A stretch of DNA of 35,611 nucleotides, taken from positions 81,435 to 117,045 of IMG/VR virus record IMGVR_UViG_3300037067_014938; one strand, given 5' to 3'. Shown here one piece after another: positions 1-35,611 of this stretch. Position 1 is the first letter of the stretch. The number at the start of each line of letters is the position of its first letter. Below the pieces are notes generated by a model, which was not told the origin of the DNA, ran no database searches, and saw only the letters and a program-made list of their open reading frames with translations. The stretch is from a virus. Its lineage: Duplodnaviria; Heunggongvirae; Uroviricota; Caudoviricetes. The position numbers and the translations under genes are program-made.

Positions 1-51
1 GGCACATCCACGCAGACTGTCAACTGATAATCAGAACCAAAAATAAGGCCG

Positions 52-79: not shown

Positions 80-139
80 ATGTTTTCCTCAGTTTCAACC
101 AGTGTGAGAAGGGATATTATCAAACTATTGGAGGAAAAT

Positions 140-6380: not shown

Positions 6381-6381
6381 A

Positions 6382-10734: not shown

Positions 10735-11138
10735 TATGTCGTTTCCTTCACTAAGTGCAATTCGATATTGTACCTAATACTTCCACCGGATTCAACACTA
10801 ACTTTTAAATCCAATACTCTGACATAAATCCATGAAGTTGTTGTAGTTACACGATAATCGGCTGTTCCAAAATTCACATATTTTTTAGAATCGACGTATC
10901 CTTGTAGAGTAGACAACATTCCAGAAAATCCGGAAAAAGTTTTTGGTATCTTAGACCATCGTAAAACAATTAACCGATCATCAAAATATGATCTTTGCTT
11001 TACAAGTCCCCCATCAATCAACTCAAAAGTAGAATAATCTTGTGAATCATTTAATTCAATCATTGATGGATTTAAAATTAAATAATATGCTCCAGAATAT
11101 GAACTAGTTGTATTAAAAGCTATTCTTGTTAATGACAT
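10734..11138 (-). CDS. Putative distal tail (Dit-like) protein
   Basis: 134 aa, directly after the tape measure. Pattern LILNPSMI...TFELIDGG fits distal tail proteins. Mainly a positional call. Confidence 0.55.
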   Translation of the reverse strand: MSLTRIAFNTTSSYSGAYYLILNPSMIELNDSQDYSTFELIDGGLVKQRSYFDDRLIVLRWSKIPKTFSGFSGMLSTLQGYVDSKKYVNFGTADYRVTTTTSWIYVRVLDLKVSVESGGSIRYNIELHLVKETT

Positions 11139-11141
11139 AGT

Positions 11142-15881: not shown

Positions 15882-15885
15882 TGGA

Positions 15886-16224
15886 TTATCCTATTGAGAA
15901 AGATTTATGAGGACCTTGTTTCTTGCCCGAAGAAGATGTTTGTTTTTTTCGTTCATGCATCTCTTCTTTTATTTTTTTCTTCCATTGTTCCAAATATTCA
16001 TCGAGTTCATCATCATCATTTATGATATCGTCTTCTGGAATCTCCGGACCTTTTCCGGATAGCATCCAATCATAAAAACGTAGCCACATCAAAAGAATTA
16101 ATTGGGGATTTGTGAGATCAATAGATGCCCTATTTGATCCATCATGAAATAAAAATAAAGAAGAATTAGAGGATAAAGAATATCTATACTTTAAGAGGAT
16201 ATCTGATCTGCGGGCGACTCGCCG
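15886..16224 (-). CDS. -1 frame C-terminal extension of the tail assembly chaperone (gpGT-like)
   Basis: The -1 frame is open without a stop from the slippery site at 16224 to 15886 (RRVARRSDILLKY...LMWLRFYDW...SFSIG, 112 aa). The 68-aa track ORF at 15886..16092 is its tail. Confidence 0.85.
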   Translation of the reverse strand, partial: RRVARRSDILLKYRYSLSSNSSLFLFHDGSNRASIDLTNPQLILLMWLRFYDWMLSGKGPEIPEDDIINDDDELDEYLEQWKKKIKEEMHERKKQTSSSGKKQGPHKSFSIG

Positions 16225-17012
16225 AAAAAACTTACGTCGAATCCCCTTAAGAATAGATTGAATAAAGCCAGAATTTTTGTGGCGGCAAAACCATCCTCTA
16301 ATAGTTCCTTTTCAGAATTCCATAAGGGAACAAGAGAATGTTTGTTGTTGTATTTTTTTATACAACCTGGAGCTAAAATTTTTATTCGTTCAGTAATTAA
16401 CTGCTCTTCTAATGAATCAGAAAATAATCTTGCTCTCAAAGAAGCAAGTTCCATGTGCCGTGCTTTTGTAGTCATCAGTTGATTATATATTTCTCTGGCT
16501 CTTTGTTCAAGAGAATCTCTCTTTTTTTGTAATTCAGCAAGAGTAGTTTCATAGTTATCTGAATCTTTTGGTAGTTGTAAAATTTCTTCTTCTTGTTTCT
16601 GGAACATTTCCCGTGTAACAGAAAAATTTTCATTAAGTTTTTTTAACTTTTCAGGAAGTTCATCTCGATATTCTCTTTCTTGAGATTCCGGCCAATCACC
16701 ACTACCAATTTTTACTTGTTTACCATCGACATCAATCATTAATGGTTGATTGTATATTGCGAGATATTGGCGATCCGTTAAATATAGATTTTCTCGTAAT
16801 GCTTTTGCTCTGAACTGAGCGGATGTCTTATCCGCTTTCAAAGATAATTCAACTCCGGGATAAATAAAAACAATTGGCCCATATTCTTCAGTATTTATTG
16901 TTTGGCTACCTGTTAATACCGATTGTAGTTTAGCATTATCTTCGGATTCAATTATAGCCTTTTCAGTATCCTTGTCAATAGACAATGCATCTTTTAATTC
17001 TTTCTCTGCCAT
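16191..17012 (-). CDS. Tail assembly chaperone (gpG-like), 273 aa
   Basis: Lies between tail tube and tape measure, acidic and coiled-coil, and ends in a frameshift site. Confidence 0.8.
   Translation of the reverse strand: MAEKELKDALSIDKDTEKAIIESEDNAKLQSVLTGSQTINTEEYGPIVFIYPGVELSLKADKTSAQFRAKALRENLYLTDRQYLAIYNQPLMIDVDGKQVKIGSGDWPESQEREYRDELPEKLKKLNENFSVTREMFQKQEEEILQLPKDSDNYETTLAELQKKRDSLEQRAREIYNQLMTTKARHMELASLRARLFSDSLEEQLITERIKILAPGCIKKYNNKHSLVPLWNSEKELLEDGFAATKILALFNLFLRGFDVSFFGESPADQISS
16224..16230 (-). other. Programmed -1 ribosomal frameshift heptamer T TTT TTC
   Basis: X XXY YYZ heptamer in the correct phase (agT TTT TTC ggc), 10 codons before the chaperone stop, with the -1 frame open downstream. 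Confidence 0.85.
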
Positions 17013-17031
17013 ACCATTTTCCCTTTAAAAG

Positions 17032-17103
17032 CTCCCCCAGTAGGATTCGAACCTACATTCAATCGGTTAACAGCCGATTGCTGGACCATTCAGCTATAGG
17101 GGA
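17032..17103 (-). tRNA. tRNA-Asn (GTT), CCA not encoded
   Basis: Full cloverleaf: acceptor TCCCCTA/TGGGGGA, D-stem GCTG/CAGC, anticodon stem ATCGG/CCGAT with loop CTGTTAA, T-arm GTAGG-TTCGAAT-CCTAC, discriminator G. U1-A72 and G73 fit bacterial tRNA-Asn. Confidence 0.95.
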
Positions 17104-17115
17104 ATTGTTTGAATT

Positions 17116-17245
17116 TGGATGGCCCAGAAATTGGGCCATCCATACTAATAATCTGATCATTTTTGTAATCCCTAATCGGGAATTAGTTACATCCCGACGT
17201 ATTACAAAAGCCCGATTGGGCATGAGTAGGTATTAAACCCACTCA
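17116..17245 (-). ncRNA. Putative structured RNA in the tube-tRNA spacer (three hairpin elements)
   Basis: Perfect 11-bp stem 17116-17142; alternative pairings within 17161-17220; 8-bp stem 17223-17245 whose single non-Watson-Crick pair is G-U only on the minus strand. Confidence 0.45.
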
Positions 17246-17252
17246 ATGTATG

Positions 17253-18818
17253 TTACGCGTATACCGGAGGCAAACCGCTACCAACTATACTCAACGCCTG
17301 AGTTGAGAAATTAAGTTCAAGTCCACCTGCACCAGTAATTGGCGTTGTGCTATTATCACCAATAAAGTTACAACCGGTAAATGTTTGAGTCTTTAATAGA
17401 GTTGTAGTACCGTGGGTTGTTTGAGAACTATAAAACTTAAGAATTATAGTCATATCCTTCACTGCCTTTAAGTCAGACATTAAAATTTCTTTTAGCGTCC
17501 CAGCATCAAAAGCAGTATCAGAACCCAGTAATTGTGCAAATTCCCTCAAATCATTTCTGTTAAATGAGAGTGTAATTTCATTACGAAGATTGCCCTCAAG
17601 AGGTTTTGCAACCGATCTTGATTCACCAAACTCATCAATTGACTCTCTCGTCAAAGGAACATTAATACTAACGTTAGTACAACGTTGAAGTTTAGACGCC
17701 GTATCAGAAGCGTGTTGGAACTCAACTCTGATATAGCCCTTTGACAATTTACCAATACCACTATCAATATTTGTCAATCCTCGGAAGCCCGTCTTATGGC
17801 CAGTACCATTATAGAAATAATAAACTAATGGCGTAGTAGAATCAATACCAAGAGCTGGACCAATATACGCTTTGATAGTATAACCATGTGATGTATGATT
17901 ACTATGTATAATTGTTCCACCGGCAGTTCCAGTCCATTTGACTAAGTTTGATCCAGCATAAACAGCATAAGGTGAACCAAAACAGGCATTACTATTAATT
18001 GGAACTCTAAAAGTCAATGAACCAGTTGTAGAATTATAGCTCATAAAAGAACCAGTAATAGAATTAGTTTCTCTCCAATCACCCAAAAGCAGCCGCTCTT
18101 CTTCACCAACCAAAGTATAGTTTTGACTACATTCACCACCAACGTCAAAATTATAGGTTAAGTTATCCACGTAACAACGAGGTAGTATAATACTATACAT
18201 AATAGTAGTAGCGACAGTATCATATCTATGAGGAAGTATAACATGAACTGGATTAGAATCAACGGTAGTCTGTGTAATAGTATATTTATTTACCAATGAA
18301 ACAATATCTGCCGTAGCTGGAGCAGCAGTTAATTTATTTGCAGTTACTAATCTAAGTCTATGCACATTAGCAGTTTTACCACATTTAATCTTTGTACTTA
18401 CTGTAGAACTTCCCTGAACTTTACAATACTCAGTATCGTTTGTCGTGGCAAAACTACGTATACGAATAACCTGGACCCAGTCATTCGTCGCAATACTATC
18501 TTTTCCACCATTAACTCCGCTAATACCTAAGTAGATTGTAGCTGCTGTATTACCCTTCGTTCCAACGATATTTCTACTAATATAAGTACCAAACATCATT
18601 GCTTCCAAGTCAGTTGTGCCCCATTCGTTGCTATTAACTGTCACATTGGTTTCAACTAACGTAACTGTATCTTCTACTAATCCAGCATTACCCATTTCGA
18701 AGACACTATCAATAGTATAGTTAGAATTCCAATCAAATGTTTGAATTCTTCGTGTAGGAACTCCATTTATATATGCAGCAACTTGTTTTGCTTGCACGCG
18801 TGTCGGTTTTACGGACAT
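17253..18818 (-). CDS. Major tail (tube) protein with inserted domains, 521 aa
   Basis: Follows the putative tail terminator. Strong RBS GAAAGGAG. Tube-like motifs RIQTFDWN...VFEMG and RCTNVSINVPLTRESIDEFG...NEITLSF. Confidence 0.8.
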   Translation of the reverse strand: MSVKPTRVQAKQVAAYINGVPTRRIQTFDWNSNYTIDSVFEMGNAGLVEDTVTLVETNVTVNSNEWGTTDLEAMMFGTYISRNIVGTKGNTAATIYLGISGVNGGKDSIATNDWVQVIRIRSFATTNDTEYCKVQGSSTVSTKIKCGKTANVHRLRLVTANKLTAAPATADIVSLVNKYTITQTTVDSNPVHVILPHRYDTVATTIMYSIILPRCYVDNLTYNFDVGGECSQNYTLVGEEERLLLGDWRETNSITGSFMSYNSTTGSLTFRVPINSNACFGSPYAVYAGSNLVKWTGTAGGTIIHSNHTSHGYTIKAYIGPALGIDSTTPLVYYFYNGTGHKTGFRGLTNIDSGIGKLSKGYIRVEFQHASDTASKLQRCTNVSINVPLTRESIDEFGESRSVAKPLEGNLRNEITLSFNRNDLREFAQLLGSDTAFDAGTLKEILMSDLKAVKDMTIILKFYSSQTTHGTTTLLKTQTFTGCNFIGDNSTTPITGAGGLELNFSTQALSIVGSGLPPVYA

Positions 18819-24434: not shown

Positions 24435-25577
24435 TACTTTTCCTCCTGTTATGTCACTTAAGTTATTATCGTTTATTGTGTTAATTTTTGTACTAATTTC
24501 TAAAGATTTTTCAGAAGCAAATACAATTTCTTTATCTTTTTCAATTACTATATCAGTCGGACAATGAATTGACGACTCAATTAAATCTCTAATTGTATTA
24601 TCTGGATTTGTTTGTAATGAAGAAACATAGGCTTTTGTGTCAGCTGGAAACTCAACTATTCCCCACCCCATAAAATTGATACCAATTAATTTATGCCGTG
24701 GAGTAATACCACTATCTATAAGTGCACGATGTTCAATAGCAACATGTTGATAATAATCAAACATACTATGGGTTTCACTATTAAACACTTTTCCACATTC
24801 CATACATTCTAGAGAATCAAATAAACACTCCATACTTACAGCTAATTTACCTTCGAAGTATCTCTGCCTTATTATCTCATCTCTTAAAAGATACGTATTG
24901 GATTGTGCGTCTACTAAGTCCGTCTGTTGCATATAGGGTGATAATCTATTCAATATTCCAGTAAATTCTAAGGCAAGAATTTCTTTATTTTCTTCTGGAG
25001 AAGAATCTGGGTCCGCTAAAGTTCTCAAAGTTGCCTCTAATGAGAAACCTATAACTTGATCTCTCATATGCTCCCAATCAATTAGTTGAAATCCAGCAGT
25101 TTGATAACTTTTAATTAGTTCCTCTTTTGAGAAGAATGTACCATTCTTGTTAGCCCCTTCATGAACACCAGCCACATACAAGTAGTACTTATCATTCATG
25201 CTGGCTGCTAAGAATGATTCTTTACTTAAAGGTATAATACCTTGTTCTCTTGGTACTTTAAGGTTTGGTTGTGTAGAGCATAATTGTGCCCCAGATGAAA
25301 AGAAAGCTTTCTTATTTGCCAACATGACTAATGAAGACTGTACTCTATTTTTAAGGGTCTCTTTAACCCAATTTCTCGCTTCTTCTATAGTCCACGTGTT
25401 TTTATCAAAAAGATAAGAATACACAGCGGCCTCCTTGGTATCTTTTAATATACCAATTACCTCTTTAACTCCTTCTTTATCTTTAATTAAACACTCTTTA
25501 AAAGAATCAATTTCAAATTTATCATCTGAATTTACAATGATTATAATATGCATATCTGTTACTTTTGGAGTTGCCAT
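23739..25577 (-). CDS. Prohead protease fused to coiled-coil scaffold, 612 aa
   Basis: Protease-like motifs (HEGANKNG..F; IDWEH...VIG; VSMEC; INFMGWGIVEFPAD) followed by a long coiled-coil C-terminus. Confidence 0.75.
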   Translation of the reverse strand: MATPKVTDMHIIIIVNSDDKFEIDSFKECLIKDKEGVKEVIGILKDTKEAAVYSYLFDKNTWTIEEARNWVKETLKNRVQSSLVMLANKKAFFSSGAQLCSTQPNLKVPREQGIIPLSKESFLAASMNDKYYLYVAGVHEGANKNGTFFSKEELIKSYQTAGFQLIDWEHMRDQVIGFSLEATLRTLADPDSSPEENKEILALEFTGILNRLSPYMQQTDLVDAQSNTYLLRDEIIRQRYFEGKLAVSMECLFDSLECMECGKVFNSETHSMFDYYQHVAIEHRALIDSGITPRHKLIGINFMGWGIVEFPADTKAYVSSLQTNPDNTIRDLIESSIHCPTDIVIEKDKEIVFASEKSLEISTKINTINDNNLSDITGGKVMSLFKFETSITNTLTLVQAFLVANKELVDLTNGQKPTKEQIDAFTTEFSAALARVIGGLEVITLTDRVYNENEVTLVKDVSAQIEAARQEEQSIAKIELTKLQDNLVAAETARTELIKKLEDTEKALTELKSNITKTEVNAKIDTFLASLKEDGVTIPETLLPDVKVMIEAKLFDEKKLNDLKLSLIAMVKQETLATASANNNGLTPGSANEELTGTLEDKLTRIREKHIK

Positions 25578-27034
25578 TACTTATCTCCTAATAATGATTC
25601 TTGTTTATTTTGTGTATCAAAAAACTTCATAGCAACATCTCCAAAAAGACTTTTCATATTCATCCATTTATTTTGCACCATTTGATAAGCCGGAGATGTT
25701 TTTGGTGTCATATTTAACGCTTGATAATAATTAAATTTAGCTCCTTCTATATTTATATCTTCTAATTCTATACTTGCAAAATAAATGTACACCTGATATG
25801 CCTTTGTGGCATGTTGGAACATAAATTTATTAACATGGTCTAATAACTCTTTATTTTTTCCTTGATTTTTTAAACAATCAATAAATCTTATAAATGTATC
25901 TTGATATTCAGGTTCAATTTTATAGGATTCCCAAAAATGTTTTTCTGCCTGTTCCCAATTTTGTTTAGCAGAATAGATAATCCCAAGTCTATATAAAACG
26001 ATAAAAGATGAATTCAAATTGTTCAATATAATATTAGAATTATCCTTTTTTTCGTCATATCTGGATACAACAAATAGATATCGTTTTAACCAAAATTCTG
26101 CTTTATCTAAATCATTTGTCATCAAATAAACTTCACTTAGATTCATGATTGAATCCAGGTGATCGGGTTTTATTTTTAATACAGCGTTAGCATGCTCTGC
26201 AGCTTTAATAGGTTGCCTGGAGTTTATATATGCCGTGCTTAATTGCTCATTTGCCATAATAAAAGCATTAATAAACCTGTCATCTCCAGTATGCATTTTA
26301 GAAACAATTAAATCAAGAACTTTTTGAGCCGCTGAAATAGTCCCTGCACTATCATTTTTAGCTCTTAATAATTGGGCCAAATTTAAATAAGCAAAATAAT
26401 CATTTGGGTCATTTGCAATTTGTTCACGCAAAAGCTCTTCCGTTCTTGCATGTTTTCTTTGCATTTCTTCTTCACCAAGAGAATATCCATAATGATATAA
26501 AGATATATTTGATCTCCGTGCATTTGACATTTCATTATTAGGATAGATCAACTGATTGTGCACTGACCCGATAAAAGTTGGATTTAATCTTTTTCCAGAA
26601 ATATCTCTAAAGGGGAATAATCTAGGATAAAATAAAGAAGCAACTAAAGAATCCTCTGAGACAGAATTATATATATTAACCATAACTTCTTCGTGAGGAT
26701 GATTTGAATTTAATACAAATTCTAATTCTTTATATGATTCTTTAGTAATTATTTCATCTAAGTCCACAAATAGAATCCAGTCGGTGTCTTCTGGAACAGC
26801 CTCCAAAGTAAAATTTCTGGCCTTAGAAAAATTCTTTTCCCATGGATGTTTCATTAAAACCAATTTATCTTCTGGAATAAACTTTCTAAACAACGCCTCA
26901 GAATTATCATCATATTTAGTTAAATTAATAATAACTTTATCTGGATTGGTCTCTAATATGCTTTTAGACCACTGTTCAACCCATTTTTCTTCATTACCTG
27001 AAATAGCAATAACTACGAATTTTTTCCGTGCCAT
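25577..27034 (-). CDS. Glycosyltransferase family 2 with TPR repeats, 485 aa
   Basis: GT-A motifs (NFSKARNFTL; ILFVDLDE with DxD; FIGSVHNQL; LYHYGY) followed by TPR helices (DPNDYFAYLNLAQ; PDHLDSIMNLSEVY). Confidence 0.9.
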   Translation of the reverse strand: MARKKFVVIAISGNEEKWVEQWSKSILETNPDKVIINLTKYDDNSEALFRKFIPEDKLVLMKHPWEKNFSKARNFTLEAVPEDTDWILFVDLDEIITKESYKELEFVLNSNHPHEEVMVNIYNSVSEDSLVASLFYPRLFPFRDISGKRLNPTFIGSVHNQLIYPNNEMSNARRSNISLYHYGYSLGEEEMQRKHARTEELLREQIANDPNDYFAYLNLAQLLRAKNDSAGTISAAQKVLDLIVSKMHTGDDRFINAFIMANEQLSTAYINSRQPIKAAEHANAVLKIKPDHLDSIMNLSEVYLMTNDLDKAEFWLKRYLFVVSRYDEKKDNSNIILNNLNSSFIVLYRLGIIYSAKQNWEQAEKHFWESYKIEPEYQDTFIRFIDCLKNQGKNKELLDHVNKFMFQHATKAYQVYIYFASIELEDINIEGAKFNYYQALNMTPKTSPAYQMVQNKWMNMKSLFGDVAMKFFDTQNKQESLLGDK

Positions 27035-27043
27035 AAAATCCTC

Positions 27044-27451
27044 TTAAGTTAAAATATCTGTCATATAAGGAACTTTTCTCACATAATTAAAAAAAGCATG
27101 TGAATTCCTTTTTCCACTACCATATGTCCAAACAAAAAGAGCAATATGCAATTCTTGTTCTGTATCCGTATCTAATTTTGTATTATCACTTGGTTGTACT
27201 TGCCAAGTCACAGTTCCACTTGTATTTATAACTACATCATTTGCGTTTTTAATATTTTGTTTATATCTACTATTTATTGTAGCCAGATGTTTTGCATCAG
27301 CAGTTAATAATTCTGGACTATAATAAAATTGAGTGCATCTTAATGTACCAAGTGACGATAGTGGAATCTTTGTACCTGTTTCTGTATCTATAAGTGTAAA
27401 AACTAATTTATAAGAATTAAGTTCATCGAAATACTGTGTAGAAGCTGACAT
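27044..27451 (-). CDS. Small beta-sandwich protein, BppU N-terminal-like (possible fibre connector)
   Basis: Pattern LVFTLID...IPLSS...GTVTWQVQPSD...ALFVWTY resembles BppU-type Ig domains. Confidence 0.45.
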   Translation of the reverse strand: MSASTQYFDELNSYKLVFTLIDTETGTKIPLSSLGTLRCTQFYYSPELLTADAKHLATINSRYKQNIKNANDVVINTSGTVTWQVQPSDNTKLDTDTEQELHIALFVWTYGSGKRNSHAFFNYVRKVPYMTDILT

Positions 27452-27463
27452 AATAAATTCCTA

Positions 27464-27691
27464 TTAAGATAACAATTTTAGAGATAATTCACTTTGTATA
27501 ACTTTTGTAGATTCATTACTTGTACAGTATACTTTTAAATTATCTGTATCCACCTGTCCTCTATATAGGGTAATTTCAGATAATCCTATTTGTTCAGTGA
27601 TAACTGCAAAAGCTATTGGAGAAGTTGGTTGAAATCTTGGATCAAGTTCTCCCGGTTTTGCATTAAATCTATCGTCAAATCCAAAAGGCAT
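27464..27691 (-). CDS. Hypothetical protein, 75 aa
   Basis: Co-oriented ORF coupled to the upstream stop (TAATG overlap at 27691). Confidence 0.6.
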   Translation of the reverse strand: MPFGFDDRFNAKPGELDPRFQPTSPIAFAVITEQIGLSEITLYRGQVDTDNLKVYCTSNESTKVIQSELSLKLLS

Positions 27692-28287
27692 TATGGCACC
27701 CTATGAAACACTAAAGTACTATCTAACACCGTGGATGTATTACTGTGCTTATAAATAATGGACATTAAGCACACACCAAGTGAATCAATTATTTGGATGC
27801 TATCCTTTGGACTAGCCCCGGTATTCGGCCAGTATACCATCTTTGTTTTATTTGTTGCTCCCCAAAAAGTAGCCATACTCCATATTAGACCATTTTGTCG
27901 TTCTAATTTAGTATTTAATGTATCAACAAGTTTATTCCAGTAAGCAGTCGTAAAATAAGAAGAATCCATAAGAATTCTTTGAAAGTCAATAGTTTCAATA
28001 GAATCAACTCCAAAAAAGGCTGTATATTTAATAAATACATATTTATCAGTCTTTACTGCACTAGCAATAATTACAATAGAGTCCCAACTTGCATTTGTTG
28101 GTATAATCTTAAAAGAAGAATCCGTTCCAGATGGTTCAAATTGCATTTTAACTATAACAGAATCAGCAGTAGACAAACTACCATTATTTGCTGTAGTAAA
28201 AGAACAAGGGATATCAGATCCTATAGATATTGACCCAAACAAAATTATTATAGTTAATATAAAAGAAACAAAATTTTTTATTTTCAT
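27691..28287 (-). CDS. Secreted hypothetical protein with Sec-type signal peptide, 198 aa
   Basis: N-terminus MKIKNFVSFILTIIILFGSISIG (basic n-region, hydrophobic h-region). Nine of its 12 Asp residues are followed by Ser/Thr. Confidence 0.75.
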   Translation of the reverse strand: MKIKNFVSFILTIIILFGSISIGSDIPCSFTTANNGSLSTADSVIVKMQFEPSGTDSSFKIIPTNASWDSIVIIASAVKTDKYVFIKYTAFFGVDSIETIDFQRILMDSSYFTTAYWNKLVDTLNTKLERQNGLIWSMATFWGATNKTKMVYWPNTGASPKDSIQIIDSLGVCLMSIIYKHSNTSTVLDSTLVFHRVP

Positions 28288-28340
28288 AACATTTATCCAA
28301 TTATATACTTATCATGTATTATTCCATATTTTTGTACTGA

Positions 28341-31300
28341 TTATCGGACACTAACCCCAAAAATACTCAAAAGTTTAAGCCCCAATTTTTGCAACCAAGT
28401 CAAAGGTGCTTTCACAAGATAAGCAACGCTATCTCTCGTAACATTTCCACCCGTGTCCACGATAGCAACAACAAAATAAGCATTCCCGGTATCCTGAGAA
28501 CGCCATAAGTAATCCTTGACTTTTGTAATATATCTTACTTCTGATCCATAGGCTGTATCATAAATTGTTGTGTCAATGCCATATTGGTTATTAATTTTTA
28601 AAGTACACGAAGCTAACCGCTCTTCCGCGTTAGCATTTGCAGATGTGTCAGACATATAGGCTATTAGGGCATTAGAAATACCTGTTATAAAAGTATCTGT
28701 AACTGGTATGATGCTATCAATTACTGGAGGAACTGTATCAATATAATTTGCTTTAGTATGATAAAATACTTTAGTCATAAGATTATACGTTGTAGTGCTA
28801 CTCCATGATGGATTATTAGGTAATGTTCTTTCTTCAGGGGTTAAAAAACCTGAAAATAAATACTTTATAGGCTTATTGTTAGCTGTAGTATCTGAAATTG
28901 GCCAAAAATGAACCCCATATTGAGAATGAGAGGGTATTTCTGTGCTATCACCATATACCCACAAACCAACCCAATAATTTGTATTGGACTCCAATACAGT
29001 TGTTGGATCAAAAGAGTATCTCAATCTTTCAGGAATAGCATCACTAGTGCCGTTTGTTAAGGATGAATCTAATGATCTCGCCAAAGGTGTTTTAGGTGCT
29101 CCGGCAGTTCCATCACTCTTATAAATTGCATAATATACAGTATCAATGCCCACTCCGTTTGCACTACACCAAAGGGCAGAAGAATCTAAAAAGGCGGTAA
29201 CTCCAGCTGCAAATATTGGTGTAGTATATTTCCATAACCGTAATACACCTTTTGAGTTAAGTTGAGAACCCGGAGTTGTCCCACTATCTAATCTCCATCC
29301 AAAGTAATTAATGGTAGTATCAACCCAAATATAATTCATTATTCCCGTGCTATATACCGTTTTACTAACTTCTCCACAAGTAGGATCATCACTCCATACT
29401 CTTAGTTTAAATTTACCATTTTGAGTTGTATCATTTCTGGTAATTGTCCTTGTCATTATAGTATCACCGGTCGTAGGTTCACTTGTGTGATAATCAAATA
29501 CTATTGGGTATGTCACTCCACCATCCTTTGAAAACCATAATGTATCTGCAATAAAAGTAAGATCACCACTTAAGGTATAAGTTACAGTAGAAATAGCATC
29601 AACAGTATCAGTTCCGCCAATAGCATATGTTGTTAACGTTGGTGATACTATATTTGCCACACCAATTGTAATATCATTTGTGTCATATCTGGCACCACCA
29701 ACCGAATTAAATGCTTTAATTATCCAGTGTGACTCACCAACATCACTACAAATTGGAGTATAGGGAACAACGGTGTCTCCATTTACCATATCCCCCACAG
29801 CAGTGCATGTTCCAGAAAAGATATTATACTTTACTAATGAGTCATTAAAATAAACAGCTAATGAACAAATAGTATTATCGTCGTCTATACCAAAGGTAAT
29901 ATTCATTGCAGAATTAGCATTAGCAGAAGTAACAGTTCGATCTATAATAGTGGAAGGGCGAATTCCTTTTTTTGTTCCTATGAAAGCTTCGTAGGGGGTA
30001 AGAACAACTGAATTTACAGATGTGGCGGAAGTCTCACCATTAGCATTTATAGGATAATAATATTCTTCTAAAGAAACAGTTTTTTGAAAAGCAGTTCCAT
30101 ATGGAGCAATTGCGGTTCTTCCCCATCTTCCATCAGAACAAGTCATTAACAAAACTACGTTATTACTATCATCATAGTTACGTTGCCAAATATATAAATA
30201 AGTAGAATCCGTTTCTTTTGTATCTTCATTTCCTGCAATAGTTGTATCCCTTACCCAATTTCTATTTCCAAATGTGTATAATACGCGGGTGTACGCGTCG
30301 GGCAAGCCCAAGTCTACCTCGTAGATATTATACCAACGCAAAGAATCATTAAACCTCATAAAAGTTACGTATGCATTAGTATCTTGAACACAAGCAAAAA
30401 ATGCCAAATGGAGTTTAGAAATATCACCTATATGCCCCATAGCCCAGGTCGCAGTATCAGTTCCACTATTTGTTAGGTATCCAACGTCAGTAGGTATAGT
30501 CCAAACAACCATTTTATTTAGATGTTGTGCCATTGTGTCACCGTAGGCTAATAAGGTCAGCCATGAGGGAGCATTACTAGTCACTCCTATAGGATTTTCT
30601 AAAGAAACACCAGATACAAACGGAAGAGTAGCTGATAGCATAGCAACGTTAGACTTGTCTATATTGACGCACTGTCTAATTCTTGGTAGACCTCCTGCGG
30701 TGGTTGCTGCATCCAACCAACTTTGAATCATTGTGTCTATGGGACCAGTGGATTTATCAAAATATTTATATAATGAATCTTGATTACTTTCTATATTGGC
30801 TATTTCTTTCCAATCCATTTCTGAGGTAGGTCCACCCCTTGTTGAGTCAATCCGATAATAAGAATTAAGTCTTGGTGAGGCCGCGTTGCGGTATTGGTTA
30901 TCAGAGAAAAATCCTGTAGGTGGATGTGTGCCTATTCCTGGGCCTATAGCTTTTGCTGAATCTTCTATAAAATGCCGTACAAATGCATAAGCGATAGCCT
31001 TTTGAGTAGTTACACTGAACCCATTGGCTAGCCATTGATAACCCATTGGATATGCAAAGGTATCTGTATTAGTGTTATTAAAAAATTGATATGTAAATCG
31101 TGTTTCACTAGGATTTAATCCAGCTGTAAGAATTACTCTACTATAGTTTTCAGGAGCAGCTCCACGAGAACTATCACCATGTTGTTTAAGTGAAATCATA
31201 TCGTCAGCAATATGCACAACTAAGGTTTCAGCACGAGTAGAAACACCAGGAAGTACGGAATCAAGATAATGGGTAGCATAATCATACAACCAAGCATTAA

Positions 31301-31628
31301 CCGTATCGAGTTCTCTAGCATCAATCTGATTAAGTACTCCGGCATCACCATCATACAGATCAATTTCTTGTGATGAAGCATACGGGCCTACTATACAGGG
31401 CCAATTGTAAACTGCTGCCGTATCCCGTAAAGCATTCATTATAATAGGAGATCCGGCAATCATCCAATAACCCATATGACGGGATAACCACGCATAGTTA
31501 TAGTGATCCGCCTGAATGTAGCCATTTCCACCAAAACCAGATTTCCAAGGAGTGTCTCTATCTACGGCTCCAGTGATAGAGAATAAAAATAAACAAATAC
31601 CAAAAAGTATAATTAATTTTTTAAGCAT
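28341..31628 (-). CDS. Secreted multidomain protein: signal peptide, glycoside-hydrolase-like barrel, Ig-like domains, amphipathic C-terminus, 1095 aa
   Basis: MLKKLIILFGICLFLFSITGA signal. GFFSDN...GVSLEN...WQRNY pattern suggests a GH-like TIM barrel. Ig-like linkers (DTVPPVI) and C-terminal TWLQKLGLKLLSIFG. Confidence 0.65.
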   Translation of the reverse strand: MLKKLIILFGICLFLFSITGAVDRDTPWKSGFGGNGYIQADHYNYAWLSRHMGYWMIAGSPIIMNALRDTAAVYNWPCIVGPYASSQEIDLYDGDAGVLNQIDARELDTVNAWLYDYATHYLDSVLPGVSTRAETLVVHIADDMISLKQHGDSSRGAAPENYSRVILTAGLNPSETRFTYQFFNNTNTDTFAYPMGYQWLANGFSVTTQKAIAYAFVRHFIEDSAKAIGPGIGTHPPTGFFSDNQYRNAASPRLNSYYRIDSTRGGPTSEMDWKEIANIESNQDSLYKYFDKSTGPIDTMIQSWLDAATTAGGLPRIRQCVNIDKSNVAMLSATLPFVSGVSLENPIGVTSNAPSWLTLLAYGDTMAQHLNKMVVWTIPTDVGYLTNSGTDTATWAMGHIGDISKLHLAFFACVQDTNAYVTFMRFNDSLRWYNIYEVDLGLPDAYTRVLYTFGNRNWVRDTTIAGNEDTKETDSTYLYIWQRNYDDSNNVVLLMTCSDGRWGRTAIAPYGTAFQKTVSLEEYYYPINANGETSATSVNSVVLTPYEAFIGTKKGIRPSTIIDRTVTSANANSAMNITFGIDDDNTICSLAVYFNDSLVKYNIFSGTCTAVGDMVNGDTVVPYTPICSDVGESHWIIKAFNSVGGARYDTNDITIGVANIVSPTLTTYAIGGTDTVDAISTVTYTLSGDLTFIADTLWFSKDGGVTYPIVFDYHTSEPTTGDTIMTRTITRNDTTQNGKFKLRVWSDDPTCGEVSKTVYSTGIMNYIWVDTTINYFGWRLDSGTTPGSQLNSKGVLRLWKYTTPIFAAGVTAFLDSSALWCSANGVGIDTVYYAIYKSDGTAGAPKTPLARSLDSSLTNGTSDAIPERLRYSFDPTTVLESNTNYWVGLWVYGDSTEIPSHSQYGVHFWPISDTTANNKPIKYLFSGFLTPEERTLPNNPSWSSTTTYNLMTKVFYHTKANYIDTVPPVIDSIIPVTDTFITGISNALIAYMSDTSANANAEERLASCTLKINNQYGIDTTIYDTAYGSEVRYITKVKDYLWRSQDTGNAYFVVAIVDTGGNVTRDSVAYLVKAPLTWLQKLGLKLLSIFGVSVR

Positions 31629-32365
31629 TATCTTCCATTCCTGTTTGGTTTGCCATTGCGGTTCTGTTTACCGTTGATGTTGTCCTTAAAATTCCCCGGC
31701 GAAGCATAGACGTAGGTGATCGTCATATATGGGTCATTGGTTGTCCCGGTAGCATTTACGGAATAGAAGTTTATCATATGCCCTTTCGTTTCCGTCTTTA
31801 AGGCAAGGCGGACTCCTATAAAATTGGCAAGATTCCCTGTCACAACCGAATCCATGATTGCCGTCAAGGGTATTCGATACCACTTACCAGCAATAGTATC
31901 GGGAATAGCCTTTTTGATTCTCCAAGCCGATGAATAATCGTTCCCGTCACTACCACATCCGGCCGATGTCCAGTTGGTATCAGTCCGTCGTCGTGTCCAT
32001 GTAACTTGTGAGAGTACCCAGTCTTTAATAAGAACATCGGTATAGAATGTGTCGGTTGATGAGGCACTCAACCCGTAGCTCTTTCCTTTCACGAAAAGGG
32101 TGCAAGCTACTACGGAAGACGCATTATCCATGCTATCATTAAAGGTAGCCCCCCCGACGTAGAACCCCATAATAGTACGATATTTATATATATCATCAAC
32201 CAGCATCGCTCCAACAGCAAGAGTATCGACATTACTGTAGTTTGTGGTGGCATCTATACTATTCATGTAACTATCTTCGAGATAGTACGTCCGAGTTATA
32301 GTCGTGTCTGTCGCCCCAACCATACCATAGAGCAGAAGGACGGCAAATAGTAATCGCTTAATCAT
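31628..32365 (-). CDS. Secreted DNRLRE/CBM96-like domain protein, 245 aa
   Basis: MIKRLLFAVLLLYGMVGA signal. DNRLRE-like motifs EDSYM...TNYS...LAVG; YRTIMGF; W...VTW...W...G; FYS...DPYMTITY. RBS GAGGT. Confidence 0.75.
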   Translation of the reverse strand: MIKRLLFAVLLLYGMVGATDTTITRTYYLEDSYMNSIDATTNYSNVDTLAVGAMLVDDIYKYRTIMGFYVGGATFNDSMDNASSVVACTLFVKGKSYGLSASSTDTFYTDVLIKDWVLSQVTWTRRRTDTNWTSAGCGSDGNDYSSAWRIKKAIPDTIAGKWYRIPLTAIMDSVVTGNLANFIGVRLALKTETKGHMINFYSVNATGTTNDPYMTITYVYASPGNFKDNINGKQNRNGKPNRNGR

Positions 32366-35300
32366 AGTACCTCTTGCCGAACAAGACGATTCGTTTCATT
32401 TTCAGAAAATTCCCTGCCGCCGTATGTGCAATGACCCACTTGAAGGCAATCTCTTGACCGGCGGTGAAGGTATTGCCGATAGTAAATTTGGAACCAGCAC
32501 CCCATGATTCGCTCGCTCCAACATCTGATCCGCTACTACTCGCATGAACCGAATCGGCAAATACCGCTCCAGTCTTGGGAATGATGATGGCGAAACTGTC
32601 TACTACCGTTGTCGCGGAACTTCGATAAAATTTGATGCTATCGACAAGGACGTGGGCCTCAAAGGTGTAGGACGCGGCAACTGTGTCATGGATATTTGTT
32701 CCCACTATGCAGGTATCCATAAATGTCACCCAATCAGTACCAGAAAAGTACGGGAACGTGCATCGGGTAGAATCGTCTGTCCTCATATTTCCAAGTACAT
32801 TTCCTGCCGATAATTCACGTACCCAAGACGACGGGGAGGGCGTTCGCGGAGTTGGGCGAAATGGAACCTCCTTATACCCGGTATGCCAGATACTCGTCCC
32901 GGAAGAATCGTAAAGACCCGTGAACACAACCCCTAGAGTCATGTGCGACCCTTCATCAATTCCAAAGATTGACGACTGATATATGATGTCGTCCCACTTT
33001 CCGGCCGTTCCGTTCTTGATTAAAAGGCTATCCCCCTTTGTCCATGTCCACCCATGGTTACGGCTTTCCCATATCTCCCCTCCGGCAGAAGCACTCATTA
33101 CTGTAATAAACATTTGGTCATAAGCTGGTGCCCAAGCAGATAGATGGCTCGGTTGAATTGTCGCGGTGGAGCACGGCCCTTGGAATGTGAAAAATGTATC
33201 AAGAGTTTTCGACACAAACCGGTAGAGTGAGTCTGTACCTATTCGCCCTGTGACTGAATCCTTGTCGGTTGAAACAAACATTACATAAAGACTGCCGGTG
33301 TCCAGGACAATGGCCGGAGATTTCCAACGGCCGAACCGAGTAATCCTATGAAGTGTTCCCCACGTCACGCCGTCGTTACTCGTGCGGGCGAATATAGCTG
33401 ACATCGGAATGTTACCGACATTCCACGTCGCCCGGTAAAACAAACATAACTTTCCGTCTGCCGTTTGCAGAAGGCCGGGGTCAGATAGATAGGATGCCGC
33501 TTGATTGCATTTATGTGAATCTGCCGCTATACTCGTTGTATCATAATACCCGATGTTCGACCCACTGTGGAAATAGTAAATCGTATCCTCTATAAAATTT
33601 GTTGAACCGGCGGTATCTATCGGATTATGAAATGTGTCTACCGCATCCGGGCCGTACTTATTTGACCACCCCTTAGGGTTGGTAATATCATTGGAAACAT
33701 GGATAGTGGGGTTTTCCTCGGTATCAGAATTGATAAGTGGCGTTGTTACCAACCACCATTTCCAAGCCGATACCGTATCTGAATTGCGGGGAAATCCTTC
33801 AGGGAAATAAGCAATTCCCGGATGGACATGGCGGGAACTATCCCCCGTGGCCACAGTCAATTTTCGGGCAGATAGAGTAAAAAAGGTGTCCGTTCCATAG
33901 ACCACACTTGCCGGGATAATATCATCTAGGTTCCAACGGGTTTGGATGTTGTTTCTTCCGAAATGGCCAGAAACCGAAAGACCACCATTGACGTGGAGAT
34001 TTGATATATTCCCCGATCCCTCGCCTATATGGCCGTCAACCATCGCCTGTAAATCAGCATCCGTGGTATCGACAGTGGCAGTAGGTGTCTCCCATGTCGG
34101 AACCGATGACACGCCGTTAGATTTCAAGTATGTCCCTGATACCCCAAACGCTAATTCCTGAATCGAAGTAGCTGTTGCGTTAGAATAAAACATTCTCCAA
34201 GCTGTAGCATTTAAATAAGTTATTGGTGTATCCGAAACAGCGGCATTTGGAGTAGTAACCACAAAATCAAGAGTATTATCATCATCCTGATAGGTAACAG
34301 TAATCCCCGTTTCAGTGTTTCCAGTAGTCATTCCACCAACTTTATCAGATACCCATTCAACAATATTAGTTGTGTTAAGTTTTGTTGAATCAATACATGC
34401 TGTTGCTAAATGGCCATTTTTTATTGCACCGGCATCCAGACTAACAACACCGGCAGAGCCAAAATTAAAAATAGAATCAATAAAACTAGTAATACCCTTA
34501 TTAGTGGTAGATGCATCCTCTCCTGTTATTGTAATACCCCCAGCTGAATTAGTAATGTCTATTCCTTCACCTTCAGTTAATGTCGCTAAAACCGGATCAG
34601 TTGTTCCATCTCCTATTGGAATCTGACCATTCGTTGCGACGCCTAGAGCAGTTATTGCCCCAGTACCAGAACCTAATAATATTCCACCATCTGTAAATGT
34701 AGCTGCACCAGTACCGCCTTCATTAACATCCCAAGGATTAGCGGTATTTACAAGGTTGGCTTCTATTGTTCCATCTGCAATATCTGTCAATATTGCAGAA
34801 TAGGCCGTAAACTTAGTTTTAACAGTTGTTGTATCCCAATACTTGCCAAAGTAGCCGGTAAACGCACTATTGGTGGTATCTATCTTAGTTGCAGAATCAG
34901 CATGTTTAGCATATGTGACCGAGTCAGGGCCAAATGCTGAGCTGTCAGCCCAGTTCCATACAGCACCAGCCAACTCAAATTTAGTTTTAACAGTTGTTGT
35001 ATCCCAATACTTGCCAAAGTAGCCGGTAAACGCACTATTGGTGGTATCTATCTTAGTTGCAGAATCAGCATGTTTAGCATATGTGACCGAGTCAGGGCCA
35101 AATGCTGAGCTGTCAGCCCAGTTCCATACAGCACCAGCCAACTCAAATTTAGTTTTAACAGTTGTTGTATCCCAATACTTGCCAAAGTAGCCGGTAAACG
35201 CACTATTGGTGGTATCTATCTTAGTTGCAGAATCAGCATGTTTAGCATATGTTACCGAGTCAGGGCCAAATGCTGAGCTATCAGCCCAGTTCCATACAGC

Positions 35301-35611
35301 ACCAGCCAACTCAAATTTAGTTTTAACAGTTGTTGTATCCCAATACTTGCCAAAGTAGCCGGTAAACGCACTATTGGTGGTATCTATCTTAGTCGCAGAA
35401 TCGGCATGTTTAGCATATGTTACCGAGTCAGGGCCAAATGCTGAGCTGTCAGCCCAGTTCCATACAGCACCAGCCAACTCAAATTTAGTTTTAACAGTTG
35501 TTGTATCCCAATACTTGCCAAAGTAGCCGGTAAACGCACTATTGGTGGTATCTATCTTAGTTGCAGAATCAGCATGTTTAGCATATGTGACCGAGTCAGG
35601 GCCAAATGCTG
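32358..35611 (-). CDS. Fibre-like protein with 56-aa tandem repeats and C-terminal Asp-box (BNR) beta-propeller; 5' end outside the window
   Basis: The frame stays open to the window edge (the track start 35477 is an internal TTG Leu of the repeat). Fibre motifs GILLGSGTGAITALGVATNGQIPIGDGTTDPVLATLT and YLKSNGVSSVPTW. Asp-boxes RTSNDGVTW and ESRNHGWTW. Confidence 0.8.
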   Translation of the reverse strand, partial: AFGPDSVTYAKHADSATKIDTTNSAFTGYFGKYWDTTTVKTKFELAGAVWNWADSSAFGPDSVTYAKHADSATKIDTTNSAFTGYFGKYWDTTTVKTKFELAGAVWNWADSSAFGPDSVTYAKHADSATKIDTTNSAFTGYFGKYWDTTTVKTKFELAGAVWNWADSSAFGPDSVTYAKHADSATKIDTTNSAFTGYFGKYWDTTTVKTKFELAGAVWNWADSSAFGPDSVTYAKHADSATKIDTTNSAFTGYFGKYWDTTTVKTKFTAYSAILTDIADGTIEANLVNTANPWDVNEGGTGAATFTDGGILLGSGTGAITALGVATNGQIPIGDGTTDPVLATLTEGEGIDITNSAGGITITGEDASTTNKGITSFIDSIFNFGSAGVVSLDAGAIKNGHLATACIDSTKLNTTNIVEWVSDKVGGMTTGNTETGITVTYQDDDNTLDFVVTTPNAAVSDTPITYLNATAWRMFYSNATATSIQELAFGVSGTYLKSNGVSSVPTWETPTATVDTTDADLQAMVDGHIGEGSGNISNLHVNGGLSVSGHFGRNNIQTRWNLDDIIPASVVYGTDTFFTLSARKLTVATGDSSRHVHPGIAYFPEGFPRNSDTVSAWKWWLVTTPLINSDTEENPTIHVSNDITNPKGWSNKYGPDAVDTFHNPIDTAGSTNFIEDTIYYFHSGSNIGYYDTTSIAADSHKCNQAASYLSDPGLLQTADGKLCLFYRATWNVGNIPMSAIFARTSNDGVTWGTLHRITRFGRWKSPAIVLDTGSLYVMFVSTDKDSVTGRIGTDSLYRFVSKTLDTFFTFQGPCSTATIQPSHLSAWAPAYDQMFITVMSASAGGEIWESRNHGWTWTKGDSLLIKNGTAGKWDDIIYQSSIFGIDEGSHMTLGVVFTGLYDSSGTSIWHTGYKEVPFRPTPRTPSPSSWVRELSAGNVLGNMRTDDSTRCTFPYFSGTDWVTFMDTCIVGTNIHDTVAASYTFEAHVLVDSIKFYRSSATTVVDSFAIIIPKTGAVFADSVHASSSGSDVGASESWGAGSKFTIGNTFTAGQEIAFKWVIAHTAAGNFLKMKRIVLFGKRYYD
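34809..35611. repeat. Intragenic tandem repeat, 168-bp unit, at least 4.8 copies
   Basis: Anchor CAGCACCAGC recurs at 34961, 35129, 35297 and 35465. Units differ at five positions only. Confidence 0.98.

Follow-up and report, generated by a model that had tools for sequence, protein, structure and literature searches.

Does a tailed phage send some of its late proteins out of the cytoplasm, to be decorated there by an O-glycosylation system of its host? This question is raised by a window of 35,611 nucleotides (the whole stretch of DNA analysed here) from the 117-kb genome of an uncultured tailed phage with 145 ORFs and 34% GC. A block of genes for leader-bearing proteins, rich in the sequon D-(S/T)-(A/I/L/V/M/T), is embedded in its head-gene operon, between the probable portal (the ORF adjoining TerL) and head or head-maturation genes. 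The genes of this cassette are closely packed, with starts and stops overlapping or near, and form a single operon with the head genes. The features concerned are the following.

32358..35611, minus strand: fibre-like protein, predicted to be exported, truncated by the contig end; from the ORF, its repeats and its relatives
34809..35611, minus strand: 168-bp tandem array (4.8 visible copies, 98% matches) encoding the 56-aa shaft repeat; site of the assembly break
31628..32365, minus strand: 245-aa protein, predicted to be exported, with a DNRLRE domain (disaggregatase-related repeat) by profile match; leader MIKRLLFAVLLLYGMVGA
28341..31628, minus strand: 1095-aa protein, predicted to be exported, TIM-barrel glycoside-hydrolase-like by predicted structure; leader MLKKLIILFGICLFLFSITGA
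27691..28287, minus strand: 198-aa protein, predicted to be exported from its leader MKIKNFVSFILTIIILFGSISIG and sequon count; fold without family assignment
27044..27691, minus strand: 75-aa and 135-aa proteins of the same operon, without leaders and without sequons; internal negative controls
25577..27034, minus strand: leader-less GT2-TPR glycosyltransferase by Pfam and PHROG matches, directly downstream of the cassette

Both of these small leader-less proteins (75 and 135 aa) are also kept in the sister phage contig L007. A fifth protein predicted to be exported (114 aa, 8 sequons) is encoded outside the window. N-termini of the n-h-c type with a small residue at position -1 were recognised in all five cassette proteins, leaders being called by eye and with a crude hydropathy rule. 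The AF2 model of the 1095-aa protein shows residues 2-17 as a separate N-terminal helix, and leaders are present in nearly all of its ~50 relatives. The leader of the fibre-like protein, reported as not visible in the earlier note, was now located in ORF C1:3-581(-) at the opposite end of the contig. This ORF is the true N-terminus of the fibre and reads MKIYNKIALYLMLTILCVGNLLS followed by the same 56-aa repeats; the gene is split across the contig ends because the break falls within the 168-bp array.

The hand counts of D-[ST]-[AILVMT] made in the earlier note were reproduced exactly, both for the leader-bearing proteins (7/198, 27/1095, 5/245 and, for the fibre, 30/1039) and for capsid (0/326), tape measure (8/1579), hub (10/1450), central fibre (7/1823) and tail tube (7/521), and the recount agreed on zero for the adjacent leader-less 135-aa and 75-aa proteins. 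Composition-preserving shuffles, which that note had proposed as a control, gave expected numbers of 1.2, 6.1 and 1.5 for the 198-aa, 1095-aa and 245-aa proteins (z 5.8, 8.9 and 3.1, respectively). The fibre holds 34 sequons in 1083 aa of open frame against 7.6 expected (z 10.2), and 20 of the 34 fall in five near-identical 56-aa repeats, four in each. With the fibre repeat taken once and two extra exported pieces included, the pooled count was 70 against 16.1 expected (z 14.3; 2646 non-redundant residues). The density in the cassette is about 1 per 37 aa, or 4.3x expectation, the densest carriers being the shaft repeat (4 in 56 aa) and the 198-aa and 114-aa proteins. The enrichment is specific for the motif: in the pooled set, E[ST]h (2 vs 5.0), N[ST]h (10 vs 12.5), the reversed motif (11 vs 16.1) and N-x-S/T (22 vs 29) were not enriched. 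At the third position V, I, L and T are preferred while D, K, R, G, Y and W are avoided, in agreement with the published preference (PMC12871550).

Across the genome, a Poisson p<1e-3 was reached in only 5 of the 145 ORFs, all five being parts of signal-peptide proteins, and the remaining non-membrane ORFs held 68 sequons against 63 expected. Strong enrichment is thus limited to leader-bearing proteins; several other leader-bearing or membrane-anchored phage proteins (177, 182 and 265 aa) are not enriched. The tube, described before as intermediate, showed mild enrichment (7 vs 2.0 expected), as did the hub (10 vs 4.3); both are leader-less, and periplasmic glycosylation does not explain their excess.

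AF2 gave a model of the 1095-aa protein with pLDDT 87 and pTM 0.87, in which residues ~20-560 are predicted to form a TIM-barrel ((beta/alpha)8) glycoside-hydrolase-like domain and a beta-sandwich; no family match was obtained for the C-terminal half. Foldseek found 171 PDB structures at E<=1e-3, and the best 50 of these 171 are almost all glycoside hydrolases. The top match of the N-domain was to GH168 endo-fucanases (endo-1,3-fucanases; E 3e-7, TM by target 0.6), structures of GH13, GH66 and GH27 were also matched, and the nearest language-model neighbours of the protein were GHL15 clusters (similarity 0.93). The predicted N-domain would thus be most like GH168 and Pfam GHL15 in structure and in language-model space, although sequence searches against Pfam, NCBIfam, PHROG and PDB gave no match. 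The invariant residues D243, N244, E275 and E344 are candidate catalytic residues.

The whole family shares the sequon load. About 50 representatives, cellular and phage members alike, hold 817 sequons against 185 expected (4.4-fold), and in the conserved sequon columns S and T interchange, as do the hydrophobic residues. The sister phage homologue (71% identity) keeps 23 of the 25 aligned sequons, and S/T is kept at 25/25 positions within sequons as compared to 138/182 elsewhere (p 0.003); against the relative P0003, D is kept at 19/23 and 17/36, respectively (p 0.007). Between phage copies with 52-71% identity, sequon residues are therefore more constrained than like residues at other positions. 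They do not appear to be helix caps, because in the model they are spread over helices, strands and loops. A cellular homologue terminates a Wzx/GT4/Wzy_C/deacetylase/PMT_2 polysaccharide locus in Zixibacteria-like MAGs, which suggests that the hydrolase acts on host exopolysaccharide. An unrelated phage contig (L093, 52% GC) carries a five-gene cassette with leaders and sequons that includes the same hydrolase.

The fibre-like protein consists of the leader, at least 7 shaft repeats of 56 aa, a ~90-aa module, a BNR-like propeller and a C-terminal sandwich. This is a modular build of the fibre type, with modules common to phage fibres. The BNR_2 profile match was below cut-off (E 5e-4), and a search of the fibre for the Peptidase_S74 chaperone domain gave no match. 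Its C-terminal 551-553 aa share 71-72% identity with an exported, leader-bearing protein of a Zixibacteria-like MAG (G001), and 9 of the 12 aligned sequons are retained as sequons. The 245-aa protein matched NF033679 (DNRLRE) over residues 30-217 with 57.2 bits against a cut-off of 34, and PF06848 below cut-off (E 1.4e-5). Searches with the 198-aa protein, including Pfam, PHROG and NCBIfam, gave no family, and the sole relative found was a 197-aa homologue in the sister contig L007, also with 7 sequons. The GT2-TPR protein matched Glycos_transf_2 (28.6 bits, above cut-off), TPR_19 (48 bits) and phrog_13126 (E 4e-15). Elsewhere, the phage genome encodes three GT4-type enzymes, an epimerase, TPP-dependent E1 subunits and an acyltransferase, and a PMT_2-like multi-pass protein (candidate GT-C; E 7e-4, 20.3 bits, below the cut-off of 26.1) is encoded 1.3 kb from the 114-aa gene.

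Two cassette proteins have their cellular relatives in Zixibacteria-like FCB MAGs, a lineage other than those for which this type of glycosylation has been demonstrated. These two, the 1095-aa protein and the distal domain of the fibre, are by sequence of cellular exported-protein ancestry, and their sequon load is at least partly inherited, as a trait of cellular exported families and not an invention of the phage. The GC of the cassette (fibre body ~48%, 245-aa gene 44%), higher than that of the genome, suggests fairly recent capture. In three Zixibacteria-like genomes, exported proteins show a 1.76-1.90x excess, for the D-(S/T)-h motif only, as compared to 1.10-1.23x for cytoplasmic proteins and 1.22x (not significant) for exported proteins of E. 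coli; a baseline excess of ~1.1-1.2x was seen in every protein class tested. We infer an O-glycosylation pathway in the host from this statistical footprint in the proteomes; so far the system has been shown to operate in Bacteroidota only, and its transferase has yet to be established (PMC12871550). The host may be Zixibacteria-like rather than a member of Bacteroidota, but the assignment is weak because the MAGs with relatives have 49-60% GC against 34% for the phage and a search of 285 genomes of that class yielded no related prophage.

General O-glycosylation in Bacteroidota (the LFG system of B. fragilis; Tannerella, Porphyromonas, Flavobacterium) acts on the sequon D-(S/T)-(A/I/L/V/M/T) (PMC12871550). 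The cassette resembles that system in the sequon, in the third-position preferences, in the limitation to proteins predicted to leave the cytoplasm and in having many sites per protein, which is also seen in surface proteins with heavy glycosylation. It differs in that the substrates are phage-encoded, that the system was never demonstrated in the likely, Zixibacteria-like host lineage, and that the 4.3x density exceeds the mean of 1.8-1.9x for exported proteins of that lineage. The MAT fibres of Bdellovibrio bacteriovorus are exported, with a signal peptide followed by a conserved ~130-aa beta-rich domain, phage-tail-fibre-like modules, variable adhesin or enzyme tips and, in one subfamily, an S74 chaperone (Caulton et al. 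2024, PMC10769870). The phage fibre shares with them the leader and the fibre-like modular build; unlike these cellular proteins of a predator, it is encoded in a phage late operon, has no S74 domain that we could find and is loaded with sequons, none being reported for MAT fibres. Like phage depolymerases, tailspikes and the free soluble depolymerase that lysis releases, the 1095-aa protein is phage-encoded, has a predicted glycan-cleaving fold and has homologues in a surface-polysaccharide locus. Classical depolymerases, in contrast, complete their folding in the cytoplasm and are mostly tail-borne beta-helix trimers, whereas this protein has a Sec-type leader, a predicted TIM barrel and a place in the head operon. 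Mycobacteriophage virions are reportedly glycosylated by phage glycosyltransferases, cytoplasmic enzymes said by Freeman et al. in 2023 (Cell Host Microbe) to modify capsid and tail tube. Here too a phage glycosyltransferase gene adjoins the candidate glycoprotein genes, but the capsid is without a sequon and the dense carriers are the exported proteins. The earlier note held that no such phage system had been described, and we likewise found no paper describing one.

Export of the cassette proteins followed by O-glycosylation by the host is the best reading of these data, and we consider it probable. Motif specificity, limitation to leader-bearing proteins and conservation in homologues bear out this proposal of the earlier note, while host lineage and sequon origin call for correction and a role in the virion is conjectural. 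An artefact of structure or composition, D-S/T-hydrophobic being common in beta-rich or Ser/Thr-rich extracellular folds, is largely refuted and hardly credible. D-[ST]-[AG]-x-Y motifs are frequent in Ig-like domains, and the baseline excess would be in keeping with such an origin; however, the shuffles keep composition, exported proteins of E. coli are not significantly enriched, the reversed and E/N variants are flat, and the alpha/beta barrel and the beta domains are enriched to the same degree, with sites in all types of predicted secondary structure. The earlier note had also allowed that non-secreted beta-rich phage proteins might match the enrichment, but the central fibre, both Ser/Thr-rich and beta-rich, has only 7 sequons against 7.2 expected. 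Modification directed by the phage itself, with GT2-TPR or the candidate GT-C recognising the motif, be it cytoplasmically or at the membrane, and with no need for the general host system, appears very unlikely. In the sister phage L007, too, GT2-TPR follows immediately on the cassette, the other sugar genes of the genome and the PMT_2-like protein near the sequon-dense 114-aa gene point the same way, and the mild enrichment of tube and hub would fit a cytoplasmic enzyme. Yet capsid and most virion proteins have zero or the expected number of sequons, strong enrichment follows the leader and not the neighbourhood (the GT-adjacent 75-aa and 135-aa proteins having none), and cellular homologues from genomes without GT2-TPR carry the same load; moreover, the PMT_2 match is below cut-off, and the cluster of sugar genes could just as well act in the modification of DNA or polysaccharide.

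It is also quite unlikely that sequons and leaders were left over from captured cellular genes and are unused in the phage, or sit on proteins non-functional there. The enrichment common to cellular and phage hydrolases, the sequons shared by the fibre tip and the MAG protein, and the raised GC would all agree with that, whereas the stronger constraint on sequon residues between phage copies argues against it, as do the shaft repeats and the 198-aa and 114-aa proteins, for which no cellular relative was found and which are the densest. We regard as doubtful that the exported fibre, perhaps with the hydrolase, is a virion part that folds and is glycosylated in the periplasm and docks on cytoplasm-built particles after the lysis breach. 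The fibre is of modular phage type, its ~90-aa module occurs at ~75% identity in >250 proteins, many on phage-like contigs, and 64 of 120 proteins with this module have leader-like N-termini; the cassette is closely packed in one operon with head genes, and its second gene, like many receptor-binding genes, is exchanged among sister phages (products of 245, 358 or 419 aa). Against this, the cassette lies between the probable portal and head-maturation genes, and the fibre gene, being in the head region and having a leader, shows neither a location in the tail or baseplate module nor the lack of an export signal; it is 16-30 kb away from the genes for tape measure and distal tail. Two distal tail proteins that lack a leader (1450 and 1823 aa), separate from the cassette, already follow the tape measure, no docking domain was identified in the cassette proteins, literature searches found no tailed phage that adds parts after export, and leader-bearing fibre-like adhesins exist as purely cellular proteins in the Bdellovibrio MAT fibres (PMC10769870).

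Under export and host O-glycosylation, the cassette would be a late-expressed accessory block whose source is, at least in part, genes for exported proteins of the host lineage. With a cleavable leader of the Sec type, each product would cross unfolded to the periplasm of its host, a diderm of the FCB group that is probably Zixibacteria-like, where a general O-glycosylation system reading D-(S/T)-(A/I/L/V/M/T), as in Bacteroidota, would load the many sequons with glycan. The mature products would be of the extracellular type, namely a TIM-barrel polysaccharide hydrolase, a DNRLRE protein, a fibre whose tip is a BNR-like propeller, and a pair of small proteins. Released at lysis, or earlier via the outer membrane, they may attack polysaccharide of the host surface or matrix, with the dense glycan as a stabilising shield. 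Within this reading we lean towards free or cell-bound exoproteins and hold attachment to virions after lysis possible, at clearly lower probability. Rather unlikely, in our view, is the fuller scheme in which tailed phages of FCB bacteria complete part of their equipment for host contact outside the cytoplasm: fibre and depolymerase proteins would pass through Sec, be densely O-glycosylated by a host system that reaches beyond Bacteroidota to Zixibacteria and be added to finished particles at lysis, where GT2-TPR and the candidate GT-C might tailor the glycan.

The leaders, the ~4x motif excess and the genes copied from exported proteins make it probable that enzymes and fibres of this phage receive a sugar coat from the host once they are outside the cytoplasm. 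If the fuller scheme is true, the cassette together with the phage enzymes would provide a compact handle on the unidentified O-oligosaccharyltransferase step.

Sequons of the Bacteroidota-type O-glycosylation motif, D-[ST]-[AILVMT] (D[ST]h), had been counted by hand in the earlier note, and every one of these counts proved exact on recount. Against composition-preserving shuffles, the enrichment gave z values of 5.8, 8.9 and 3.1 for the predicted exported proteins of 198, 1095 and 245 aa, and of 10.2 for the fibre-like protein, 20 of whose 34 sites fall within five near-identical 56-aa repeats. The Ser/Thr-rich central fibre (1823 aa, leader-less) did not match this enrichment, with 7 sequons against 7.2 expected, and the capsid candidate had none against 1.0 expected from shuffles. 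When all exported pieces were pooled and the 56-aa repeat was counted once, 70 sites were found against 16.1 expected (z 14.3). In the same pooled pieces, the control motifs E[ST]h (2 observed, 5.0 expected) and N[ST]h (10 and 12.5), the reversed motif (11 and 16.1) and N-x-S/T (22 and 29) stayed below expectation, and D-x-h with x other than S or T was depleted (39 observed, 64 expected). The signal is thus specific to the D[ST]h motif. The position after D-[ST] showed an excess of V, I, L and T and an avoidance of D, K, R, G, Y and W, in agreement with the published third-position preference (PMC12871550).

A genome-wide scan of 145 ORFs revealed only five with Poisson p<1e-3, namely both pieces of the fibre, the proteins of 1095 and 198 aa, and a leader-bearing protein of 114 aa outside the window. 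The remaining non-membrane ORFs together carried 68 sequons, 63 being expected. Other leader-bearing or anchored phage proteins (177, 182 and 265 aa) were not enriched; the load therefore marks a subset of the exported proteins and not all of them. Mild enrichment was seen in two leader-less proteins, the tail tube (window 17253-18818; 7 sequons, 2.0 expected, p about 0.002) and the 1450-aa hub (window 6382-10734; 10 sequons, 4.3 expected, p about 0.006), and is not explained by periplasmic glycosylation.

The window covers the final 35.6 kb of a virus record of 117,045 bp with a CheckV completeness of 99%, and almost all of its genes lie on the minus strand, forming one long late operon. Read around the contig ends, the order is as follows.

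Contig 3499-5349: large terminase (phrog_2, E 8e-9), first in the order
After the terminase: probable portal of 720 aa and two small genes
Next: the fibre-like gene, then genes for proteins of 245, 1095, 198, 75 and 135 aa
Window 34809-35611, continuing at contig 3-581: 168-bp tandem array of the fibre-like gene, inside which the contig is broken
Window 33900-34800: module of about 90 aa (LTDIADGTIEANLVNTANPWDVNEGGTGAATFTDGGILLGSGTGAIT...), fibre residues about 270-360
After the 135-aa gene: GT2-TPR, a 612-aa gene and a 169-aa gene
After the 169-aa gene: capsid candidate of 326 aa, its sole support being two PHROGs of unknown function (E about 1e-7)
After the capsid candidate: tube candidate of 521 aa, without a family match
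After the tube: tRNA-Asn, tape measure (phrog_4211, E 3e-66), and distal tail proteins of 1450 and 1823 aa
Window 80-1000, plus strand: tyrosine recombinase (Phage_integrase, E 3e-27), where the tail operon ends, on the opposite strand

The ORF at contig 3-581 (minus strand), at the opposite contig end, begins with the leader MKIYNKIALYLMLTILCVGNLLS and continues into 56-aa repeats of identical type. The fibre, whose shaft has at least seven repeats, thus also has a predicted signal peptide, and the record is a circularly permuted, essentially closed genome interrupted by the repeat array. The cassette genes (fibre-like, 245, 1095 and 198 aa) overlap or sit at most 53 nt apart, and because of these boundaries their co-expression with the head genes is almost certain. 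Given the tyrosine recombinase at the end of the tail operon, the phage may be temperate.

Sugar-related genes occur elsewhere in the genome. A cluster outside the window (contig 11610-17986, plus strand) encodes three GT4-type transferases, an NAD-dependent epimerase/dehydratase, TPP-dependent E1 alpha/beta-like subunits and a hexapeptide acyltransferase; it may act on a protein glycan, on polysaccharide or on DNA. Three further genes, also outside the window, are of interest here.

Contig 31772-33352, minus strand: multi-pass membrane protein of 526 aa, matching PMT_2 (GT-C) weakly and below cut-off (E 7e-4)
Contig 33352-33867, minus strand: adjoining protein of 171 aa, resembling 3D-domain cell-wall enzymes by eye
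Contig 34649-34993, minus strand: the leader-bearing, Cys-containing protein of 114 aa, the densest carrier of the genome (8 sequons, 0.8 expected)

The first of these genes lies 1.3 kb from the third. The 526-aa protein is a possible candidate for a phage periplasmic glycosyltransferase, or else part of a lysis region. GT2-TPR and the other phage sugar genes could tailor the glycan or serve unrelated ends, and none of them is linked to the motif.

The 1095-aa protein had no Pfam, PHROG, NCBIfam or PDB sequence match, PDB having been searched with the hydrolase profile. Among 1.84 billion representatives, a profile search detected 61 relatives. An AlphaFold model of residues 1-560 built from 35 aligned relatives was confident (pLDDT 87), an AF2 run with a 10-sequence alignment having been unusable (pLDDT 43). 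The modelled region comprises a leader helix, a (beta/alpha)8 barrel and a beta-sandwich, and its best PDB neighbours were GH168 endo-fucanases followed by GH13, GH66 and GH27 enzymes; the language-model neighbours were GHL15 clusters. In metagenome-assembled genomes (MAGs), a polysaccharide locus ends with the gene of the homologue. In the MAG locus L004 (628-9748), which is syntenic in two further loci (L001, L003), the locus encodes a Wzx-type flippase, GT4, Wzy_C, GNAT, a deacetylase and the hydrolase homologue, with PMT_2 (GT-C) in L004. The Wzy_C family also includes PglL-type O-oligosaccharyltransferases. Since the MAG homologue closes a polysaccharide locus, the phage copy is most likely an exopolysaccharide hydrolase. 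The phage PMT_2-like protein showed no BLAST-level relation to the MAG PMT_2 protein beside the hydrolase homologue.

The load is conserved in this family. Pooling of roughly 50 representatives with a length of 400 aa or more, of which nearly all have n-h-c leaders, gave 817 sequons against 185 expected (4.4-fold), and in at least 10 alignment columns a sequon was kept in more than half of the members, with S and T or the hydrophobic residues interchanged. Of 25 sequons aligned between the phage hydrolase and its sister (71% identity), 23 were retained, against an identical-tripeptide background of 42%, and the sequon S/T was kept in 25/25 cases as compared to 138/182 elsewhere (p 0.003). Against the 52%-identical relative P0003, the sequon D was kept in 19/23 cases as compared to 17/36 elsewhere (p 0.007). 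A structural reason for the motif was considered: capping of helix N-termini was rejected, as a helix starts at just 1 of the 12 sequons that the barrel model contains, and the spread of sequons over helices, strands and loops of the model argues against any such single structural role.

The cassette itself also recurs. Sister phage contigs (L007-L009) retain it with equally dense proteins, its second gene being swapped (245, 358 or 419 aa). An unrelated 30-kb phage contig of 52% GC, L093 (IMGVR_UViG_3300021603_000043), has five consecutive leader-bearing or membrane-anchored sequon-rich proteins at 5477-13943, including a hydrolase homologue, with 7, 6, 8, 10 and 25 sequons against 1.3, 1.0, 1.8, 3.2 and 4.4 expected, respectively. 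This block lies inside the structural module, between head-tail connector-like and tail genes, and the remaining genes of L093 were at expectation.

The fibre-like protein consists of the leader, the shaft repeats, the 90-aa module, a BNR-like propeller and a C-terminal sandwich, and its sequence had no match in PDB. Its 90-aa module is common to more than 250 proteins at about 75% identity, of otherwise unrelated architectures. Leader-like N-termini were present in 64 of 120 proteins with the module, several having Gln immediately past the predicted cleavage site, and normalised sequon density was 1.19 in those with such N-termini as compared to 0.68 in the leader-less ones, which suggests that exported fibres are common among such sequences. 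Over its last 551-553 residues, the fibre shares 71-72% identity with a leader-bearing protein of 579 aa that is encoded by a MAG (G001) in cellular context, with DUF5916, propeller and dockerin neighbours. GC content is 34% for the genome but about 48% in the fibre body, 44% in the 245-aa gene and 49% in the 114-aa gene, which fits capture from a higher-GC genome. The 245-aa protein carries a DNRLRE domain (57 bits, cut-off 34). Searches of the 198-aa and 114-aa proteins against PHROGs, Pfam and NCBIfam, and of the former in the atlas, gave nothing usable; the 198-aa protein had no relative in IMG/VR, and the 245-aa and 114-aa proteins had no match in four MAGs.

The hydrolase relatives were found in MAGs titled Ignavibacteriales, Zixibacteria and FCB group. 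Despite the three titles, these MAGs form one lineage, since RpoB identity among G001, G002 and G003 was 84-87%, G001, G002 and G019 were assigned to one class, and every named RpoB neighbour of G001 was Zixibacteria, FCB or GN15. The MAGs labelled Zixibacteria and FCB group were 87% identical to each other in RpoB. The label 'uncultured Ignavibacteriales bacterium' of G001 (CAZPEV010000004.1 and sister contigs), 84-86% identical in RpoB to these two MAGs, looks wrong and was set aside. The O-oligosaccharyltransferase of the sequon pathway is still unidentified (PMC12871550), which rules out a direct search for the pathway, and we therefore turned to the footprint that it would leave in proteomes. 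With sampled stretches of about 300-450 kb (loci L010-L049 and L052-L071) and a crude leader predictor, D[ST]h was enriched 1.78-, 1.90- and 1.76-fold in exported proteins of G001, G002 and G019, respectively, as compared to 1.23, 1.23 and 1.10 in cytoplasmic ones. Control motifs were near 1 in all three. E. coli K-12 did not share the pattern, its D[ST]h values being 1.22 for exported and 1.00 for cytoplasmic proteins. The footprint is an indirect sign, consistent with a Bacteroidota-type sequon-reading system in this Zixibacteria-like lineage, outside Bacteroidota. The phage capsid had no tblastn match in 50,697 phage records, and a prophage search with it in 285 genomes of the MAGs' class gave no convincing relative, one marginal match (E 7e-4, limit E<=0.001; 19 bits; with an internal stop) being discounted. 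With this result and the large GC gap between phage and MAGs, the Zixibacteria-like host is a candidate only.

In the best-supported reading, which we hold to be moderately probable, the cassette products would be exported through Sec, their many sequons would be O-glycosylated in the periplasm, and the products would then act extracellularly on host polysaccharide. The earlier note had proposed such Sec-routed glycosylation, followed either by decoration of virions at lysis or by remodelling of the cell surface. This interpretation is supported in part. As to the fate of the products, we favour free exoproteins over proteins that join virions after lysis, because the cassette lies outside the tail module, the distal tail proteins of the phage are leader-less, and leader-bearing fibre-like adhesins exist as purely cellular devices, as in the Bdellovibrio MAT fibres (PMC10769870).

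No phage system of this kind was known to the earlier note, and full-text searches on phages and this glycosylation, on glycosylated virions and on Sec-routed tail fibres likewise yielded no such case; a 2025 review of the sequon glycosylation system makes no mention of phages. The kinds that the case combines, substrates of general O-glycosylation and phage genes for depolymerases or fibres, are known. What it adds is the Zixibacteria link, direct evidence for the descent of two cassette proteins from exported cellular families already loaded with sequons, the placement of the cassette in the head operon, and the equivalent cassette in the second, unrelated phage. If the proteins are glycosylated, the phage would be exploiting the general protein-glycosylation pathway of its host by routing late proteins through Sec, a use for which we found no description in the literature on tailed phages. 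The D-(S/T)-hydrophobic system would then reach past Bacteroidota into Zixibacteria, an uncultured FCB phylum, and thereby widen the search space for the missing O-oligosaccharyltransferase, and the 114-aa protein (8 sites), the 198-aa protein (7) and the 56-aa repeat (4) would be convenient reporters of the pathway. Sequon-loaded exported proteins also offer a sequence-only marker of host lineage for uncultured phages.
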